In this document: in pieces, positions 6,249 to 28,642 of the stretch
How the letters are laid out: each line of letters starts with the position of its first letter
Position numbering within the stretch: the stretch's first letter is position 1
DNA from: Chiloscyllium plagiosum
Taxonomy: Eukaryota
Length of the DNA: 64,000 bases
NCBI RefSeq assembly: GCF_004010195.1
Contig: NC_057719.1
Location: 40,030,872 to 40,094,871 of the forward strand
Direction: 5' to 3'
Made by a program: the position numbers and the translations under genes
Notes under the pieces: model-generated
Database searches by the model: none
Told to the model about the DNA's origin: nothing
Seen by the model: only the letters and a program-made list of their open reading frames with translations

Positions 6249-7082
6249 NNNNNNNNNNNNNNNNNNNNNNNNNNNNNNNNNNNNNNNNNNNNNNNNNNNN
6301 NNNNNNNNNNNNNNNNNNNNNNNNNNNNNNNNNNNNNNNNNNNNNNNNNNNNNNNNNNNNNNNNNNNNNNNNNNNNNNNNNNNNNNNNNNNNNNNNNNNN
6401 NNNNNNNNNNNNNNNNNNNNNNNNNNNNNNNNNNNNNNNNNNNNNNNNNNNNNNNNNNNNNNNNNNNNNNNNNNNNNNNNNNNNNNNNNNNNNNNNNNNN
6501 NNNNNNNNNNNNNNNNNNNNNNNNNNNNNNNNNNNNNNNNNNNNNNNNNNNNNNNNNNNNNNNNNNNNNNNNNNNNNNNNNNNNNNNNNNNNNNNNNNNN
6601 NNNNNNNNNNNNNNNNNNNNNNNNNNNNNNNNNNNNNNNNNNNNNNNNNNNNNNNNNNNNNNNNNNNNNNNNNNNNNNNNNNNNNNNNNNNNNNNNNNNN
6701 NNNNNNNNNNNNNNNNNNNNNNNNNNNNNNNNNNNNNNNNNNNNNNNNNNNNNNNNNNNNNNNNNNNNNNNNNNNNNNNNNNNNNNNNNNNNNNNNNNNN
6801 NNNNNNNNNNNNNNNNNNNNNNNNNNNNNNNNNNNNNNNNNNNNNNNNNNNNNNNNNNNNNNNNNNNNNNNNNNNNNNNNNNNNNNNNNNNNNNNNNNNN
6901 NNNNNNNNNNNNNNNNNNNNNNNNNNNNNNNNNNNNNNNNNNNNNNNNNNNNNNNNNNNNNNNNNNNNNNNNNNNNNNNNNNNNNNNNNNNNNNNNNNNN
7001 NNNNNNNNNNNNNNNNNNNNNNNNNNNNNNNNNNNNNNNNNNNNNNNNNNNNNNNNNNNNNNNNNNNNNNNNNNNNNNNNNN
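6249..7082. other. Assembly gap (834 N)
   Basis: Run of N. Confidence 1.
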
Positions 7083-7200
7083 AGGAGAAGGAGAAGGAGG
7101 AGAAGGAGAAGGAGAAGGAGAAGGAGAAGGAGAAGGAGAAGGAGAAGGAGAAGGAAAAGGAGGAGGAAAAGGAGGAGGAGAAGGAGAAGGAGAAGAAGGA
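7083..7200 (+). repeat. (GGAGAA)n purine microsatellite abutting the gap
   Basis: Seen directly. Confidence 0.95.
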
Positions 7201-7359
7201 AAGAAATCAAAGATTAAAAATAAGTCTAGTTTAGATGACCTTGTTGTAAAATTTCACAATGTAGGATACAGTTGGGTGGAAGACAAGATTTAATCAGCTT
7301 TAATTATTTATACACTATACTTCAATGAATTTTCACATCAGAATATCTCTCAAGCTTAC

Positions 7360-7493
7360 CATCCATCACTGTCTGCTGCGTTTGCATTTACACCAAAATC
7401 AACAAGGAATTTCACAATGTGATGGTGACCAGCACATACTGCATTATGTAACGGTGTAATCCCTTCATCATTAGGTCTACTGGGATCATTAAC
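7360..7493 (-). CDS. PPP1R13B: ASPP1 exon 14, ankyrin repeat
   Basis: [44 protein letters not shown](W); cag acceptor, GTAAGC donor; 134 nt. Confidence 0.96.
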
Positions 7494-7619
7494 CTGGCCA
7501 AAACAGAGAAAAATAAATTGAAGGCTACACATATTAAGAAACATCATATTCTGTTGTCTAGGGATTTCAAGTACAGTGTGTAACAAATGACAATATTTTT
7601 TAAAAAGTTGAAAAGTCAC

Positions 7620-7757
7620 CTCATAAATGATGCGCTGAACAAGATCAAATTCTCCTTCTAAAGAAGCATCCAGGAGTAAAGCAAGAGGATCGAATTTTAC
7701 CCGCATCCCACAACCTGTCCTTTCTGAATCAGGTTTTTTCAAATTTGTACGTTTGAT
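7620..7757 (-). CDS. PPP1R13B: ASPP1 exon 13, PP1-binding RVxF motif (RVKF) and first ankyrin repeat
   Basis: [46 protein letters not shown]; cag acceptor at 7758-7759, GTGACT donor; 138 nt. Confidence 0.96.
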
Positions 7758-9582
7758 CTGAGGTAATAGTGTGAAGTTAAAAGAAAACAATAATTATCAC
7801 AACAAAAAGTCATTTTTCCATGGCTAGTAAGAGTGTGCATAATGGTCACTTCCAATGAATTGCATCTGTGAAGCCCTAATAACTTTGTCCCTCTACGCCA
7901 ATACTTTTCCATTGAGTATACATATTCAGTCACTGCTTTTTTTTTGGCCCTAAACTTCACTACACCGAATACATGTAGGAGAGATAGAACGGTTAAGAAG
8001 AAATCATATTGGTGCATGACAACATCTGCCATACAGTAGAGTTATGTAGATGTAGAAGTGTTAGCGATGATGTCAAAATAGTTGGATCAACAAGATATAC
8101 AAAGAACTTGTAATATTGATCGAAGTTAATTGTGAGAATGATGGATCACAAAATGAGAGGTTAATCACTACTAACTTATTAATAGCAACAATGGAAGACT
8201 AGAAGATTTTAATTAATCACTTTCTACATTAGGACAGAGGAATAAAAGAGGAAAAGGAATGAAAATCACTGAGAAAAGAGCTGACACTTTTCATCTTGCA
8301 TTTGTCAGGAAAAACAGAAGAATATAGAATCGGACTTCTACTCGACACATTAACAACCAATTTAAAATCAATTAAGCTCATAACATGGCTCATTTACAGT
8401 TGCCCACAAGAACTACATTCAGATCCAGGGACCTGTTCCTTGCAAACAAATGGAATATGAATCAATGGATTGAAGTTGTAGGTTTACAGCGCATTATACG
8501 TAGCATCTCAGACTGTTACAGTTGTAGACAAAGCTAATTAAATTCTCGACTTTATCACAAGCCATGATATATAACGCTAAAGATATATCGAGATACAACT
8601 TGAAGACAGCATTGTATGGACAGAGCAAGACAAATTTAGAGTTATAAAGCTATTGAATACATTTTTAGAATTAATAGTTGGGTAGAAAGTTGATTAATAT
8701 ACAAGGAGAGATTGGCCAAGTGGGTGAAAAAAAAAAGATGATGTGATGGAGTAAATAAAACTACTATTATTTAATCAAATGCTAGATAAGTGTTGACATT
8801 GGTTGATTAAGTCAAATAGTTTGTTTATGTATTAGAACTTTATCAATTTCAAAATAAACTGTATTGGCCATTTATCTGGCAATTTCCTGAATCTATTCTT
8901 CTAATCTTTTCTGATTCTTCCTTCGGTTGTCAAACCTTTTACTTTTGTGTAATCTCTAAATATCAATATTATGATCTGTCTCAGTTCAAATCATCTTACT
9001 ACATCAAAAACCGTCACGCAGAAGAAACATTTGACTTCAGAGACAAATTTCAGTAACATTTTCTTTAAAAGCAATGAAGATAGCAAATATTTTTGACAAA
9101 ACCTTTGAAAGAGATTATCAATATTACATGATATGATGCAAATGAAGCCTTGCTCTGTCCTTACCCAAACTAAAAATATTTCCTCTGCTACATCAATTCT
9201 ACTTCTCACATCAGACTCACATGAAAGCCAAAAGAGATTCTCAGTTTAATACAAAATTAGGGACAGAATTGTTCAATGAGCACATATTCAGCTAATACCA
9301 TCCAAATTCATCAGAGAACATTTTTGATCAAAATCAGATTTACATCCATAATTCTGAATTGGATTTAAAATCTAAGATTTTATCTGTATTTGGAGTTAGG
9401 TTCCAGATTAGCAATGATGTAATTAAATACACAGGGCCGAGGGGCTAAAGTAACTACTTATTGGACATCATAATTCACTATGTTATTTTGTCTCTTGAAA
9501 CACAGCTTTAAACAAATGCTCATTGATTCTATTGACATTATCCTTTGTTTATACTTTATTCCAGGTACAACACAAAACTTAC

Positions 9583-11356: not shown

Positions 11357-11806
11357 AAGAGGGATGATGGGAGAAGAGGAAGGTGCAAATGGAAGGTCTG
11401 TGAAAGAGCAGAAGACAGGAAATTAAATGACAAAAGGGATCAAGTGTGCACAAGCAAAGGAACGGAAGATTTGCCTAAAAAACGTGCATATAGGAAAACA
11501 GAATTACTAATAGCTGTTGTCCAACAAAAGGGCAGAAGTAATGTGAATTCAGTATTCAGTCAGGTAGACTATAACATGCCTAAACTAGTCTCAGTCTCAC
11601 AGAAAAACTTTTACTGTATTTATATAAATTAAGAAACAAAAACATTTACATTTTATTTTAAATGCTTTGGATTCAGTACAAAATAAATGTTCATGCCCTG
11701 GAGAAGCTAATTAAACCTCAAAATCAGTTTGTTGAAATCAAATAGGGAAAAAAATGCCTTAATATTAAAACATCAGAGACCACTTTGAAATACTGCCAAA
11801 ACCTAC

Positions 11807-11982
11807 CACCATTTTCTCATTGTTTGAAACGGTTGAGGAAGTGGACAGGGTCTGACTTGATCCAGCACCTGGTTTCAAAACTGTATCCATGTTGGATTCC
11901 TTCCAGTCATTGTTTGTTGTTGTAGGTGATTTCCCTGTAGTAGCAGAGCCCTGTGGGAGTGTTGGCCAATTTCCATCATGAC
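11807..11982 (-). CDS. PPP1R13B: ASPP1 exon 10
   Basis: HDGNWPTLPQG...DWKESNMD...NEKMV resembles human NDGNWPTLKQ...DWKDP...TEKP; phases fit both neighbours; donor GTAGGT, with an alternative GTG 3 nt upstream. Confidence 0.9.
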
Positions 11983-12659
11983 CTAATTAGGAAATTAAAA
12001 CTCATAAAACATTTAATAAATCTATTCTAAAGAGATCCAAACAGTAATTATTTTAATTAAATTTATCACAGCTGGTTAGTTTCCAATCGGTCACTTTAGT
12101 TTGGGCAGGTAGGGAGAGAATACGCCAACTATTGTTCACGCACAATCATTGCAGCCATTTTGAGGACACTTTCCTAATACTAGTAATGTATATGAAACAT
12201 GGATACAGTTGAGTTTAGTTACAAACTATTAATTAGATATTGAATCAACATTTACTTAATATCACATGTCTTCTTCCTGAAGCAGGTCCTTGGCACACTG
12301 CCTGTTGCTTTATCCCGAGCTGTTTTATTAGCAATTTTGGACAGCAGGTGGTTTGCCATCACCATGATCCACTCAATGGACATAAAAACAATGATGCTTT
12401 AAATACCAATGTTAAATATCAGTTGTCACACAACATATATCACACCAACATAAAGGGCACTTTCTTTTCCTAAGTATTGGTTTAACCTTCAATTGGCTGG
12501 ATGGGTCAGCATTTCAAAATAATGTAGAATTTTGCAGTTATAGGGTCTTCATTAATAAATTTCTCAGATGGACAAAGTAGTTATTTCAGTTAAAACGTAT
12601 GAAATATTATAAGGGATAACGATCCCTCCTTATATTTAAGATGCTTAGCATTCTTGAAT

Positions 12660-13990
12660 GTAGACAATTCACCAACCCCAGATGAAATGTCTTCTAGGTT
12701 ATTAGGGAAGCATGGCAAAATGTCGATGTTTTAACCACCATTTTCCAATCCTCTCGAGCCACAGGTATGGCACTGGACGACTGCAGGACTGCTAACCTTG
12801 TACTGTTCTATAAAATTAGAGTAACAAATAGCCTAAGTATTTATGCTTTCTCAATAGTGTGCAAGTTATTGGAAAAAATTCTGAGATAAGGTATAAATAG
12901 TCATTTAGAGATACACAGATAGCAAAGGACAGCACAAATTTGTTAAGGGGAGGTAGTGATTAACTTGACTGAAATTATTTTTAGGTGTTAACAAGGAGTG
13001 TTGATAAGGTGCTTGAGATGGTCCTCTGATTTTATCAAGGCTTTTGAAATGCTGTTATTTTTCTACCAGTACGCAAAGTATGAAACCCAAGAGAAATGAA
13101 CAAGTTGGATCCAAAACTGGCTAACTGACCGGAAGCAAAGGATTAATGATAAAAGGGTAACTTTGAGAATGGAAAGTTGATTTCAGTGGGATTCTACTGA
13201 ACTCAGTACTCATTCCCTAACTGTTCACAGCACACATATCAGCAATTGAGACTAAAATGTAAGGACATCATCAAGGAGGAAAAACTGTAATCTGGAGGAA
13301 GATATCAAAGGACTAAAAAAGTGGGGAAAAAAAAAAGTGGTAAATGGAATTCTGTCCAGAAAAATGAGGCAATGCATTTGGTAAGAACAAACACAGCAAG
13401 GTAATACACATTAAATAGTAGGCTTTTATCAAGTGTAGTGAAAGAGAGGGATCCTACTGAATCTCTATAGATCTCTGAGGAAGCAGAATAGGTAGATAAG
13501 GCAGTCAACAAAGCATAGGGGATATTTTCGGACGTTGGCCACAACCTGGAGCATAAGGGCAGGATGTTTAGGCCAGCATGATTTAAACTACAGCTACAGT
13601 ACTGCATATAGTTCTGGTCACTTGATTACAGCAGGTGAAGATCACATTGAAAGCGTATAAGAGGAGATTTAGAAGAACATAACTAACAAAGTAGTATTTT
13701 ATTGATAAAATAGCATTGAATAGACTGAGTTTGTTTCCCTTGGAACAAAGAAGCTAAGGGAATATTCCATTGAGGTGTACAAAACCATGAGATGCCTAGA
13801 TACATTGGATAGGAAGGAACTATTGATGTTAGCAGAGACGTCAACAAACAGGGGCATAAACACCAAACAAACTGGTGGTTGGATTAGAGGGGAATTGAGG
13901 AGTAATTCTTTCATTAGAAGGTGGTGAGGATCTGGAATTTACTACCCAAAAGGGTGGTAGAGAAAGAAATCCTCAACAAATTTAAAGAGA
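12660..13990 (+). mobile_element. Highly decayed CR1 LINE (RT to 3' end)
   Basis: Remnants such as gattttatcaaggcttttga (DF.KAFD), cagctacagtactgcatatagttctggtca and VRIWNLLPKRVVE. Confidence 0.7.
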
Positions 13991-14584
13991 ACACAAGATG
14001 TCAAACCTACTGCAACTCACCAAGGTTCCTTCAACAGCATCTTCCAAACACTCAGCCTCTAACACCTGAAAGGATAAGGAGAGCAGATATATGGAAACAC
14101 CACTACCTGAAAATTCCTCTCAAAACTTCTTTCACTGTTGCTGAGACAAACTCCTGGAATACTTTCCTAACAGCACTGTGGGCTTATTCATTGCAGCAGT
14201 TCAAGAAGGCAACTCACCACCATCTCCTCAAAGCCAATTAGGTATCGGCCTAGCCGCTGACACCTTTATCTCATGTATATAACATGGTCAAAACCTACAA
14301 AGGTACAGACAAAGAGATGCAAGCTGCGATTAATCTGTTAGCTATTTTTCAGTTGGCACAGACACAGTCCAAAGAGTCTCCATTTGTGACTCAAATGAGA
14401 GGAGCAACACATTAATCCAGAACTGCTTGCATCCCTCCAAGTTGGCTACATTTTAGTAGCAGCATAGACAACTAGCTACTTTCTAGGAAATGGCACATAA
14501 CAGAATGGTGCCTGTCAGACAGAGAAAAATCGTACTTTGCAAAATTTCAAGGAGTGCAGTCAAAGACCATGTTTTTGCAGATGT

Positions 14585-15620
14585 AGTTATAGAGTCATAC
14601 AGTATGGAAACAGGCCCTTCGGACCAACTCATCCACAGCGACTAGACATCCCAATCTGACCTAGTTCCATTTGCCATCATTTGGCCCATATCCCTCTAAA
14701 CCCTTCCTATTCATATACCCATCCAAATAACTTTGAAATGTTGTAATTGTATCTGCATCCACCATTTCCTCTTGCAGTTTGTTCCATAGACACGGGGAGA
14801 AAGTGAGGTCTGCAGATGCTGGAGATCAAAGTTGAAACTTTATTGCTGGAACACCTCTAAACCCTTCCTATTCATATACCCATCCAAATAACTTTGAAAT
14901 GTTGTAATTGTATCTGCATCCACCACTTCCTCTTGCAGTTTGTTCCATAGACACACCAACCAGTGTGCGAAAAAGTTACCCCTCAGGTGCTTTTTAAATC
15001 TTTCCACTCACCTTAAATGTACGCCTTTTAATTTTGGACTCCCATACCCTACAAAAAAAAAAGGTCTTGACTTTTCACCCTATCCATGTCCCTCATGACT
15101 TTATAAAACTGTAGAAAGTCACCCTTCAGGCTCTGAAATTTGCGAGAAAGAATCCACAGCCTATGCACTCGCTCCCTGTAAATTAAACCCTCCAATCCCA
15201 GCAACACCTTGTAAATCTTTTCTGCACCCTCAAGTTTAACAACGCCCTTCCTGTAGAAGGGTGACCAGAACTGTACTCAGTACACCAAAAGTGGCCTCAC
15301 CAATATCCTGTACAGCTGTAACATGACCATCCCAACCCTTATACTCAATGCTCTGACCAATGAAGGCAAGCATCCCAAATGCAGCCTTCACCACCTTATC
15401 TAGCTGCGACTCCACTTCCAAGGAACTATACACCTATACCCCTCGGTCTCTGTGTTTTAACATTTCTCAGGGCCCTAGCATTAACTGCATAAATTCTGCC
15501 CTGGTTTGCCTTAACAATATGCAACACCTCAAATTTATCTAAATTAAACTTCATCTGCTACTTCTTGGCCCGTATGGTTAAGGGTCCATTGCATTCTGAG
15601 ATAATCTTCTTCACTGAGAG
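14585..15620 (-). mobile_element. CR1 LINE 3' part with an internal 101-bp duplication and a 60-bp insert
   Basis: ORF SSLEVESQLDKVVKAAFGMLAFIGQSIEYK; tatagagtcatac tail. Confidence 0.82.
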
Positions 15621-17744
15621 TTGGACAACAAATATTTCTGAAATCATTCAAGGTCAGGACAGAGTAAATAGGGAGAAAATGTTTCCACTAGTGAAAGGTC
15701 AAGATCAAGGAGGCACAGCTTTAACGTAACTCATAAAAGAAACAAAGGTTATTTACAGAAAAAACATTTTCATACAATGAGTTGTTCAAATCTTGAATGC
15801 TCTGCTTGAGTGTGTAATGAAGACAGGTACAAAGCAGTCAGAGGGGAATTAGATTGTGTGCTCTGAAAAGGAGCAGTGTGTGTGCAAGGTTAAAGAAAGG
15901 ATAGGAGAATGACACCAAGAAAGATGCTCATTTCGAAAGCTGGCACAGACACAACGGGCCAAATGGCCGCCTTTGCAACAATCTTGTGATTCCAATAAGA
16001 CAGGGAAGTGAATGCCATTAGACAGCAATTACACGTAGGTATTTGGCCAATTTTTTCCCCTTTTCACTCACTCAAAGGATAGCAAGGCTTATCAGCGATC
16101 TCATTTGAGTTGAGATTACCTAAATCAGCATCAACCAAAGCTGTGATTGTCTTGATATATATATCATTGATACTCAGAGAAATATTCCTATGCAATGTGG
16201 GGAAGCCAAAACACGTTCAGTTTATATGGTAATACACTGTGCAATAGTTCATAATACAGTTACCCAACGGGAAGAGTAATACTTAAAACTAGTAGTTATG
16301 GCGAATTCAAGAATACAAAACTGAACCACTGTAGTCATCACAAAAATCATTCAAAGAGAACCAAGCTTATTATTTTGACTTATGAACTTTTTTCTAATTT
16401 GGATGGGATTGCTATCCAATTTGGTAAAGACTGTAAAACTAGGAAGAATTTTTGTAATTAAAAATTAACTTCTACAGTTTTAGTTTAAGAAGCATTAAAT
16501 TAGTGTGTCACAATCTTGTCTCTGGAAGCAGACCTTGAAAGAAAAACAATTTTTCTGACAAGTATAAAATTGAAGTACAGGATTTGGAACATAAATCTTT
16601 TGCTTTCACAAGATTTTAATTTAACACTGAGAGACTATGACAACTTAGAAAAGTGAGTGGGAATCAAAAGACAAATAACAGAATACGTGAAACATGTAAC
16701 ATAACTGAAGATTATTCAACACTAAAAGGATCATCGGGGGGAACAAAATGTGTGGCCTATCTTTGCTTTTTCATCTCTAAAACCCAGTGCAATGAATATC
16801 TCCATACATCTTAGCTCTCTTATCTTCACTCCTGTCACAAATGAATCTACTGCAATTAAACAAGAATGTAATTTAGTATCATATACGAACAAATGCAAAT
16901 CCAGATGATGCCCTTTGTAAGATCACTGTCACACTGCATTCAGAACAGCACTAAAAGGAATTTGTAACACTTTACATCATGAAACCATAACAACCAATGG
17001 TAGGCTATTATAAACATTTGTGAACAAACTGATTTCAAGGAGTTAATTGTGTGCAAAAGGTTTCAGTTTTATAGTACTTTAAAAACCAATCATCTAGGAA
17101 GCTTCATGCAACAGTCACATGCACAAACAAGACTTAAGCAAAACAAACATTACAAATCCTCAAACAGGAAGCCAGCTTTAGTTATGGATGCATTATTAAA
17201 GTACTGCAGTATTCAAAATTATAGAAAATTACAGAAATTTGAAAAGTAGAATTGTGTAAAGATGTACAGCCCAAGAATCTGCTTTCATAATTTTTTAAAT
17301 GCAAGGATAAACCAGAAACAAGACCAACATCCATATTAGACACCATCCAGGAGCCGGTCAGCTTGTGTCTAAGAATTTCATCTATGCATAATGGAACAGA
17401 AAATAGAAAATGGACAACTGTAGAACTAATTCGTTTAAATTTTAAACTCAAATATTAAATGCTTCCTAAAACAAGATTAGGCTGTTGTAACTCATTATTT
17501 TGTGAATTAATACATACAGCATTGACATGCAACTCTACAATTATGTTTATTTACATTGACATCAGGTGACAAATAACATTTACTTTATCCATAACAAACT
17601 TGTTACGGCTATTATGACAAATTATTAAATGCAACCAGGTAATTTCCAAATGTCATTTCTAGGCAAACAGAAAAGAGTGCTGCATGTAAGTCAAAAGATT
17701 ATGCAACAGATTATGTTCTTTAAGTACCAGTTCCATAGACTCAC

Positions 17745-17897
17745 AATATAGTTTGTCAGGAACAGAAGTTGCCAGGTAGATCACACTATGATCTGGAGAC
17801 TTTATAGAGGTAGAAGAAGTTAAAACAGGATCCACTATGATGTCTAAATCTGAAACTTTCCAAATTCCTGGAGATTTTTTCAAACTGCCATCTGATT
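17745..17897 (-). CDS. PPP1R13B: Putative alternative cassette exon (9a), 51 codons: (E)SDGSLKKSPGIWKVSDLDIIVDPVLTSSTSIKSPDHSVIYLATSVPDKLY(C)
   Basis: Acceptor ttggacag after a 110-nt AG-free tract, strong GTGAGT donor, 153 nt, phase 1-1 matching exons 9 and 10, open frame. Confidence 0.72.
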
Positions 17898-18499
17898 CTG
17901 TCCAACAAGTCAAAGCAAAGTGAGTCATTGAAGGACCCAGTAAAACAAAAGTCAAGTACAAGGATACAAGAGAATATATTGAATATAAAAGAGAAAGGTT
18001 AAATGATGTCTGAAAAACTAAAATTATAAACACAAATTAGAGTGCTATAAATATATGAACTGAATAATTACTAGTAAAAGCTTAAGTATAACAATGCTAA
18101 AAAAACTCTCTCCTATTTCAGCACTAAAAAATCCATAGATTTTTACAACACCATCTAGAAAAAAGCTTCTGACTTTCTTCCCAAATAATGTGCCTGTGCT
18201 CAAACCTGTGTATTACATTCCATTTTCTAAATTAGTTCCTCCTCAGTCCCTTGAGTAAAACTTCCAACATTGTGCCAAATTGTCAGCAATTTTGTATTGT
18301 TTCCTCAAGGATTGTAAAACTGATTTTGTACAAAATGCATGTAATAGAAGGTAACATTAGTTTGGGTTGGATTTTACTCCAAGTCTCAGAAGTGAAAGAT
18401 CATGTATCAATCTGTTCTCAAACTAAACAGCCACACAGAAAAATTTCAGAAGGATGCTGTTCAGCTCATTGAGTGCCATTAAAAAATCCCATTTAATTA

Positions 18500-28440: not shown

Positions 28441-28642
28441 CAGATTTTGCTCTAGTCATCACATAGCCACCATTGCTAGATATGGTCAGTGACTGAGGTT
28501 TCAAGATCTCTCCTGGTGATGACTGGTTACTTTCTGATCTAGCTGCAGTAGAAACTTGGATGTAGGGTCCTACAGCAGCCACACGACCAGAGGTGTTAGA
28601 GTGCGCTGGTGTTGTTGGTGTGCCATTAATTCGATTCAGCTG
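28441..28642 (-). CDS. PPP1R13B: ASPP1 exon 9
   Basis: (Q)[29 protein letters not shown]...KPQSLTISS...RAKS; TAGCAG tandem acceptor (start 28642 or 28639), GTAAGC donor. Confidence 0.94.

Follow-up and report, generated by a model that had tools for sequence, protein, structure and literature searches.

Does the long intron 9 of PPP1R13B, the gene encoding ASPP1 (a protein that regulates p53 and protein phosphatase 1), contain an optional exon in the shark Chiloscyllium plagiosum, and what would such an exon add to the protein? A first-pass annotation of the window (the whole 64,000-nucleotide stretch of contig NC_057719.1 that was analysed) had placed a hidden cassette there, 153 nt long, stop-free and frame-preserving, in phase 1-1 between CAG and GTGAGT, and the splice sites and frame bear this description out.

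The gene in the window is the PPP1R13B/ASPP1 ortholog: leaving the cassettes aside, its exons mostly show 85-100% matches to shark ASPP1, and Pfam domains of the ortholog model P0003 (RA domain, coiled coil, ankyrin repeats and SH3) support membership in ASPP1. The genome holds three ASPP genes, with ASPP2 on contig C9 and iASPP on contig C41, separate from the ASPP1 gene of the window. Our exon numbering follows exon-by-exon matches, in which exons 1 and 4 were unmatched; these two are assumed. An 834-base N gap lies between ASPP1 exons (window 6249-7082), and one ankyrin exon gave no clean tblastn block in the window.

A cassette exon in intron 9 of PPP1R13B

The exon, which we call exon A, and its neighbours are located as follows.

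28441 to 28642, minus strand: upstream exon 9, which ends in phase 1
17745 to 17897, minus strand: cassette exon A (PPP1R13B/ASPP1), 51 codons in 153 nt, phase 1-1, from splice sites and orthologs
17892 to 17893, minus strand: alternative acceptor AG inside exon A, 6 nt in, giving a 147-nt form from 17891
11807 to 11982, minus strand: downstream exon 10, 176 nt, phase 1 to 0, present in spliced contigs

On the minus strand (with a slash at each splice site), exon A follows an acceptor AG at 17899-17898 (ggacag/AAT) and ends at a donor that begins at 17744 (ATT/gtgagt). It contains no stop in phase 1-1 between exon 9 (TCT G/gtaagc, 28441) and exon 10 (ttag/GT CAT, 11982), its host intron is 16,458 nt long, and the 58 nt upstream of its acceptor are free of AG. 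A cassette exon is expected to have canonical splice sites and to keep the frame, as exon A does, and exon A adds neither the stop nor the frameshift of a poison (NMD) exon. The first-pass annotation placed it in non-repeat DNA; no tandem repeat overlaps the exon, and its peptide has one match in the whole genome. A recent transposon-derived origin was rejected, given this single match, the retention of the exon as far as birds and a paralogous exon in iASPP.

Exon-like anatomy alone is weak evidence, because the same intron contains 197 AG..GT segments of 60-300 nt that are stop-free and frame-preserving. A strict filter (12 or more pyrimidines among 20 positions, a 20-nt upstream stretch free of AG, and GT(A/G)AGT as the donor) keeps two of the 197, both of which end at the exon A donor. 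Homology settles what anatomy leaves weak: with a 52-residue exon A query, 11 of 32 candidates matched, at 62-85% identity and with a best E-value of 1.5e-18. Exon A is therefore real, and the observation of a genuine ASPP1 exon is confirmed. In ortholog models it follows the coiled coil and precedes the Pro-rich region, as had been claimed.

Several variations surround these junctions. The inner acceptor of exon A is backed by ortholog models in which the exon starts two residues later (e.g. P0017, P0020, P0025, P0027 and P0037). Paddlefish and sterlet models (P0055 and P0073) use an internal donor, so that exon A is cut to its initial 12 residues and loses the motif discussed below. The acceptor of exon 9 is a tandem CAGCAG (window 28639-28642, minus strand), and ortholog isoform pairs that are one residue apart suggest that both of its acceptors are in use. 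Exon 10 starts with GT CAT (11980-11982, minus strand), which yields G-H in the skipped form, whereas orthologs have A-N. The canonical 1090-aa human ASPP1 reads RSKS-ANDGNW and is not known to carry such an insert.

The additional ASPP1 segment that the first-pass annotation postulated thus stands, but not as a lone one: it belongs to a tandem pair, has an inner acceptor and has a homolog in iASPP. The second member of the pair is the following.

17268 to 17381, minus strand: cassette exon B, 114 nt, phase 1-1, from tblastn and orthologs, a paralog of exon A

Exon B starts 363 nt downstream of exon A. As in a tandem duplication, the two exons are adjacent, are both of phase 1-1 and share an 8-residue pattern; their homology is limited to about 20 residues. 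Exon B of this species reads WMVSNMDV (D to N and L to M) where orthologs keep SDLD, and its donor is weak here (GCT/gtacat). Its sequence thus suggests that exon B is in decay in this shark, with exon A intact. Exon 10 contains a weaker third copy of the motif (WKESNMD, from 11905), whose score in the window is second only to that of exon A.

Occurrence across vertebrates and in transcripts

Named ASPP1 isoforms with exon A were retrieved with the 52-residue query from sharks, sawfish, coelacanth, sturgeons and frog, and two more searches with the region extended the matches to lizards, turtles, birds, lungfish, crocodilians and monotremes. None from therian mammals or teleosts was among the 120 matches listed out of 318. 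A search of representative sequences (50%) returned four matches, namely three unnamed fragments of exon A and one spurious match.

From 336 proteins of at least 600 aa, 331 were parsed at the exon 9/10 junction and five were dropped. The ortholog isoforms are automatic predictions and were classed by motif pattern: 45 of the 331 models contain both exons, 126 exon A only, 52 exon B only and 101 neither, with seven classed as other. In a species sample that favours exon A (the queries contained it, and up to 15 members were taken per cluster), exon A is present in 59 of 104 species, from sharks to birds, and exon B in 38 of 104 (two Ascaphus inserts having been re-classed by eye as B). Models that carry and models that skip exon A coexist in 30 species. 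These counts agree with the earlier suggestion that the exon may already exist in predicted isoforms of other vertebrates; it is hence not hidden, since public predicted ASPP1 isoforms already contain it. The numbers of models with both exons and with neither led us to reject mutually exclusive splicing of A and B.

The two exons are distributed unevenly. In birds, exon A was found in 10 of 32 species and exon B in 0 of 32, while snakes (A in 0 of 6, B in 5 of 6) and monotremes (A in 0 of 2, B in 2 of 2) present the converse pattern. Among the sampled models, A without B also occurs in chondrosteans, lungfish and most frogs, and both exons are found in sharks, coelacanth, lizards, turtles and crocodilians. 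With A not seen in the six snake and two monotreme species and B not in the 32 bird species, each exon is apparently dispensable in some lineages. Retention of A and B looks reciprocal across lineages, although absence from models may not equal loss.

As checks on the exon, the first-pass annotation had named splice junctions in transcripts and a conserved open frame in related sharks. Four transcript-like runs of this species (X1, X5, X7 and the single-cell run X15, all of unstated tissue) were mapped on window positions 11750-18150, with exon 9 outside this stretch. Exon 10 was covered at depths of 31 (X1), 36 (X5) and 67 (X7), in longer records cut at both splice sites, and the one-base overhangs on its contigs fit exon 9 (which ends in G) and exon 11, and not A or B (which both end in T). 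The main exon 10 contigs contain neither A nor B, a state also found in the 101 ortholog models with neither exon, and the skipped form is the main form in the X1, X5 and X7 samples. Inclusion forms of exon A appear in the predicted models of other species. In this species, no exon A inclusion junction was found in the four runs among the joints listed, which repeats crowd. Exon A had depths of 8 (X1), 2.5 (X5) and 4.5 (X7); contigs running into the intron fully explain the depth in X1 and X5, and in X7 661 depth-bases are unexplained. X15 gave no reads over either cassette and covered exon 10 at about 1x. A 60-nt coverage hole around the exon B acceptor in X1 is uninformative. High-copy repeat pieces at window positions of about 14100-15600, probably SINE/LINE ends, reached depths of up to about 2e5 in the runs.

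These transcripts bear on the idea that exon A is functional in other vertebrates and vestigial or hardly spliced in this shark, which we consider improbable. The lack of an inclusion junction among the joints listed would fit it, as would the neighbouring exon B with its decayed motif and weak donor. However, the frame of exon A is intact, its donor matches the consensus, the stretch upstream is free of AG and the motif is complete, the transcript data comprise four runs of unstated tissue, and exon A is present in models of all six sampled shark species.

Candidate regulatory elements lie in the introns downstream of exon A.

17526 to 17531, minus strand: TGCATG between exons A and B, an RBFOX-type element
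17105 to 17123, minus strand: TGCATG twice, some 150 nt downstream of exon B

TGCATG is an RBFOX-type element, linked to activation in muscle or neurons. Three sites downstream of exon A (17531, 17123 and 17110, i.e. three in 677 nt) correspond, post hoc, to the arrangement of an RBFOX-activated exon. This count was matched in 44 of 5000 dinucleotide shuffles, a post hoc figure for a window picked by eye once the cluster had been noticed; at least three TGCATG occur in 7 of 1267 windows of 650 nt. The trio suggests RBFOX-type activation of exon A in muscle or neurons, and we give roughly even chances to a tissue-restricted inclusion driven by these elements. No PPP1R13B row was found in the supplementary tables searched of PMC6952364 and PMC10156590 (6 files and 12 of 24 files).

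A conserved motif and its counterparts in iASPP

Conservation of exon A is concentrated in a short core.

17839 to 17862, minus strand: motif core WKVSDLDI in exon A, the conserved core

Across 17 species, residues 404-422 of P0003 (the motif core) have a mean modal identity of 0.89, with 10 of 19 columns invariant, compared with 0.64 in the tail of exon A, 0.71 in exon 9 and 0.65 in exon 10; the reference domains reach 0.91 (coiled coil) and 0.94 (ankyrin-SH3). Distinct ortholog variants of exon A read W-K-[VI]-S-D-L-D-I in 36 of 41 cases, and those of exon B read W-T-V-S-D-L-D-V in 20 of 29. Judged from composition, the common pattern, W-x-[VI]-S-D-L-D-[IV], would arise by chance with a probability of about 7e-7 per exon. 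An AlphaFold2 model of P0003 (24 rows), in which known domains also scored low (mean pLDDT 38), gave a pLDDT of 25-30 for the exon region and hints weakly that this region is a disordered linker.

Searches for a family or partner gave no Pfam family for the region, no PDB match at E 10 and no usable match in the Atlas. Judged by their core patterns, several established classes were rejected: the motif is not an LIR because position W+3 is S or T, the RVxF core is missing, the B56 LxxIxE pattern has D in place of E in most species and is missing from exon B, and a SUMO-like tail, as in a SUMO-interacting motif, is found in exon A only. The known motif classes compared do not account for the shared Trp plus D-L-D. 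The short pattern D-[VIL]-D-[VI] of WDR5 WBM-type motifs fits A, B and one iASPP copy, but its specificity is low and it leaves the Trp unexplained.

A further reading is that inclusion supplies a degron, or a site at which modifications are read (resembling a SUMO-interacting motif, or an acidic phospho-site), such that it alters the turnover of ASPP1 and not its location. D-L-D is preceded by an invariant Ser, as would suit an acidic kinase, and LDII of exon A resembles a reversed SUMO-interacting motif; yet the hydrophobic tail for a SUMO-type motif is missing from exon B, the Ser is Ala or Thr in the two iASPP copies, and the invariant Trp is unaccounted for. We regard this reading as unlikely.

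The gene on C41 was recognized as iASPP by RARL and SILK stretches and by 58% ankyrin identity; PMC8562848 describes the RARL stretch in iASPP. A scoring matrix built from the exon A columns of the ortholog alignment was used in a six-frame scan of this gene (locus L014), which comprised 50,406 windows. Two stretches ranked first and second, with scores of 51.1 and 40.1, and the next best window scored 25.7 (mean -25, s.d. 9.4). With column-shuffled matrices, 51.1 was reached in 0 of 1000 cases and 40.1 in 2 of 1000. The two stretches correspond to the following exons.

L014:4460-4362, minus strand, C41: first iASPP motif exon, 99 nt, phase 1-1, reading KKKPGVWAEADLDI
L014:2187-2269, minus strand, C41: second iASPP motif exon, ending at a phase 0 donor

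The acceptor of the 99-nt exon coincides with the inner acceptor of exon A, and the DNA similarity was equalled by 3 of 2000 shuffles. The second stretch has five candidate acceptors, one of which, at L014:2269, is of phase 1 and would make this exon the counterpart of ASPP1 exon 10. Judging by the human protein in its canonical form, the iASPP motif exon is presumably constitutive. A TGCATG is also present at L014:2592, between the two iASPP motif exons, and the Pro-rich exon of shark iASPP (L014 about 7050-7850, minus strand) contains a 20-residue repeat with SPRA, present in several tandem copies. In ASPP2, the motif was not found in 60 kb of the gene (best score 21.2 among 34,902 windows, with 3,830 N). 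The 3′ exons of ASPP2 are on an unplaced contig (C100086:12662-16616), apart from the rest on C9.

The sequence comparisons thus indicate that exon A is an old ASPP-family motif exon and not a new insert. It is older than the split between ASPP1 and iASPP, and in ASPP1 it became optional and was duplicated, rather than newly exonised. They also speak to the view that the exon serves as a neutral spacer, or that gene predictors picked up an open frame that is there by chance, a view to which we attach very little probability. The chance-like segments of the intron and the predicted lack of structure are compatible with this view, but protein-level conservation from sharks to birds is focused on a single motif, and the paralog iASPP has a homologous exon. 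For the chance open frame in particular, the homolog matches, the conservation of the motif core and the shuffled-profile test amount to a refutation.

Proposed role and comparison with known systems

We propose that exon A is an ancient optional ASPP1 exon coding for a conserved W-x-x-S/T-D-L-D-I/V motif common to iASPP. Inclusion of A, alone or with B, would place one or two extra copies of a docking site in a disordered linker, and these copies would re-target the complex of ASPP1 with PP1. Protein binding by the motif seems to us probable, and splicing likely switches this putative docking site on and off. The proposal as a whole, an optional exon sharing its motif with iASPP that adds docking sites and re-targets the complex, is the reading we favour, with moderate confidence. 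Since iASPP has the motif too, the partner should serve both proteins; a cortical or junctional anchor also bound by the disordered half of iASPP, such as Myo1c or desmoplakin, is a tentative candidate. In human numbering, we take iASPP residues 100-200 to lie upstream of the motif and residues 290-382 downstream of it. CEP55 was set aside as a partner, its site mapping to iASPP 100-200.

Published work offers points on both sides. In PMC8562848, the disordered region of iASPP is its main Myo1c-binding part, and the iASPP N-terminus is reported to bind desmoplakin (as cited in bioRxiv 2022.02.15.480428). [quoted passage not shown] Counting against linker docking, worm ASPP works as a mini-construct of the helix plus the C-terminus, with no linker (PMC12543280).

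Alternatively, the motif could fold back on the ankyrin-SH3 module of ASPP1 and tune autoinhibition of p53 or PP1 binding. This module is the main domain common to ASPP1 and iASPP, and intramolecular contacts are known in the family: iASPP 1-290 binds the C-terminal region of iASPP (PMC8562848), and the Pro domain of ASPP2 autoinhibits its SH3 (PMC3589414). However, the strongest contribution to the iASPP contact maps to residues 290-382 in PMC8562848. Furthermore, the motif has no PxxP core, and it was not found in the 60-kb ASPP2 gene region, although ASPP2 autoinhibits. We consider such autoinhibition rather unlikely. A complex prediction that paired ankyrin-SH3 (975-1194) and the peptide of exon A (395-432), made without an alignment, scored 0.01 and gave no verdict on it.

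Returning to the docking proposal, a bolder version would make W-x-x-S/T-D-L-D an undescribed ASPP-family docking motif that is fixed in iASPP and switchable in ASPP1. A partner of the antagonist would be lent to pro-apoptotic ASPP1, zero, one or two extra copies would set avidity, and the 105-nt cassette that human colon tumours lose (see below) would be the surviving exon B. We think this version possible but doubtful. The exon itself is ordinary and is already annotated in other species. The interest lies in an 8-residue motif that is kept across jawed vertebrates, is common to ASPP1 and iASPP and would be toggled by splicing. Canonical ASPP1 cDNA presumably lacks exons A and B, and work with it would have missed the motif. 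If the proposal is true, a splice-switched docking motif would be a precise, residue-level handle on ASPP anchoring; the anchoring of vertebrate ASPP proteins and their N-terminal binding are stated to be open in PMC12543280.

Our literature search, with subscription papers and some supplements that may list the splicing event outside it, found no description of the exon A/B pair, of the motif or of its sharing with iASPP. A PPP1R13B match in PMC2715230 proved unrelated. The exon is already in public predicted isoforms; on the basis of these searches, the pair and its motif are apparently undescribed.

The closest known relatives of exon A are predicted ASPP1 (ppp1r13bb) X isoforms (XP_078418577.1, XP_006003391.1 and XP_053553366.1), which have the same exon at the same junction and sister isoforms without it. 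Unlike a described exon or motif, these RefSeq/UniRef X isoforms are unnamed automatic models.

A human PPP1R13B cassette, whose flanking intron is presumably intron 9, is a second system for comparison. In PMC4446417, PPP1R13B is a splicing marker of colon cancer, with a PSI change of -25% in 94% of 17 matched tumour pairs (Table 2), and the event is located at chr14:104210948-104211054 with empty annotation columns (Table S2). By the table's rule (length = end - start - 1, from neighbouring rows), this cassette is 105 nt long (chr14:104,210,949-104,211,053 of hg19, minus strand) and in frame. Compared by size alone, it is close to exon B (102-114 nt), which is likewise frame-preserving, and too short for exon A (about 150 nt), and it may be orthologous to exon B. 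The PSI drop may reflect smooth-muscle content of the samples, as the same list also has changes in SMTN and FLNA (PMC4446417).

Within the ASPP family, the N-terminal disordered region of iASPP (PPP1R13L) contains, in this genome, the homologous phase 1-1 motif exon followed by the second motif exon; unlike iASPP, ASPP1 has duplicated its motif exon and skips it. The ASPP2kappa variant is reportedly truncating and not an in-frame motif insertion. It is a further case of alternative splicing in an ASPP gene, but in a different paralog and with an oncogenic isoform (PMC6491939).

Two general classes are also similar. Conserved, tissue-regulated cassette exons with short motifs in disordered regions resemble exon A in the preserved frame, the predicted disordered linker, the conserved short core and the RBFOX-type elements; the ASPP1 pair differs from them in that its motif exon is older than the ASPP1/iASPP split, in its tandem arrangement and in the apparent reciprocal losses. 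With tandem duplicated or mutually exclusive homologous exons, A and B have in common that they are neighbouring, paralogous and of the same phase; they differ from this class in that they are not mutually exclusive.
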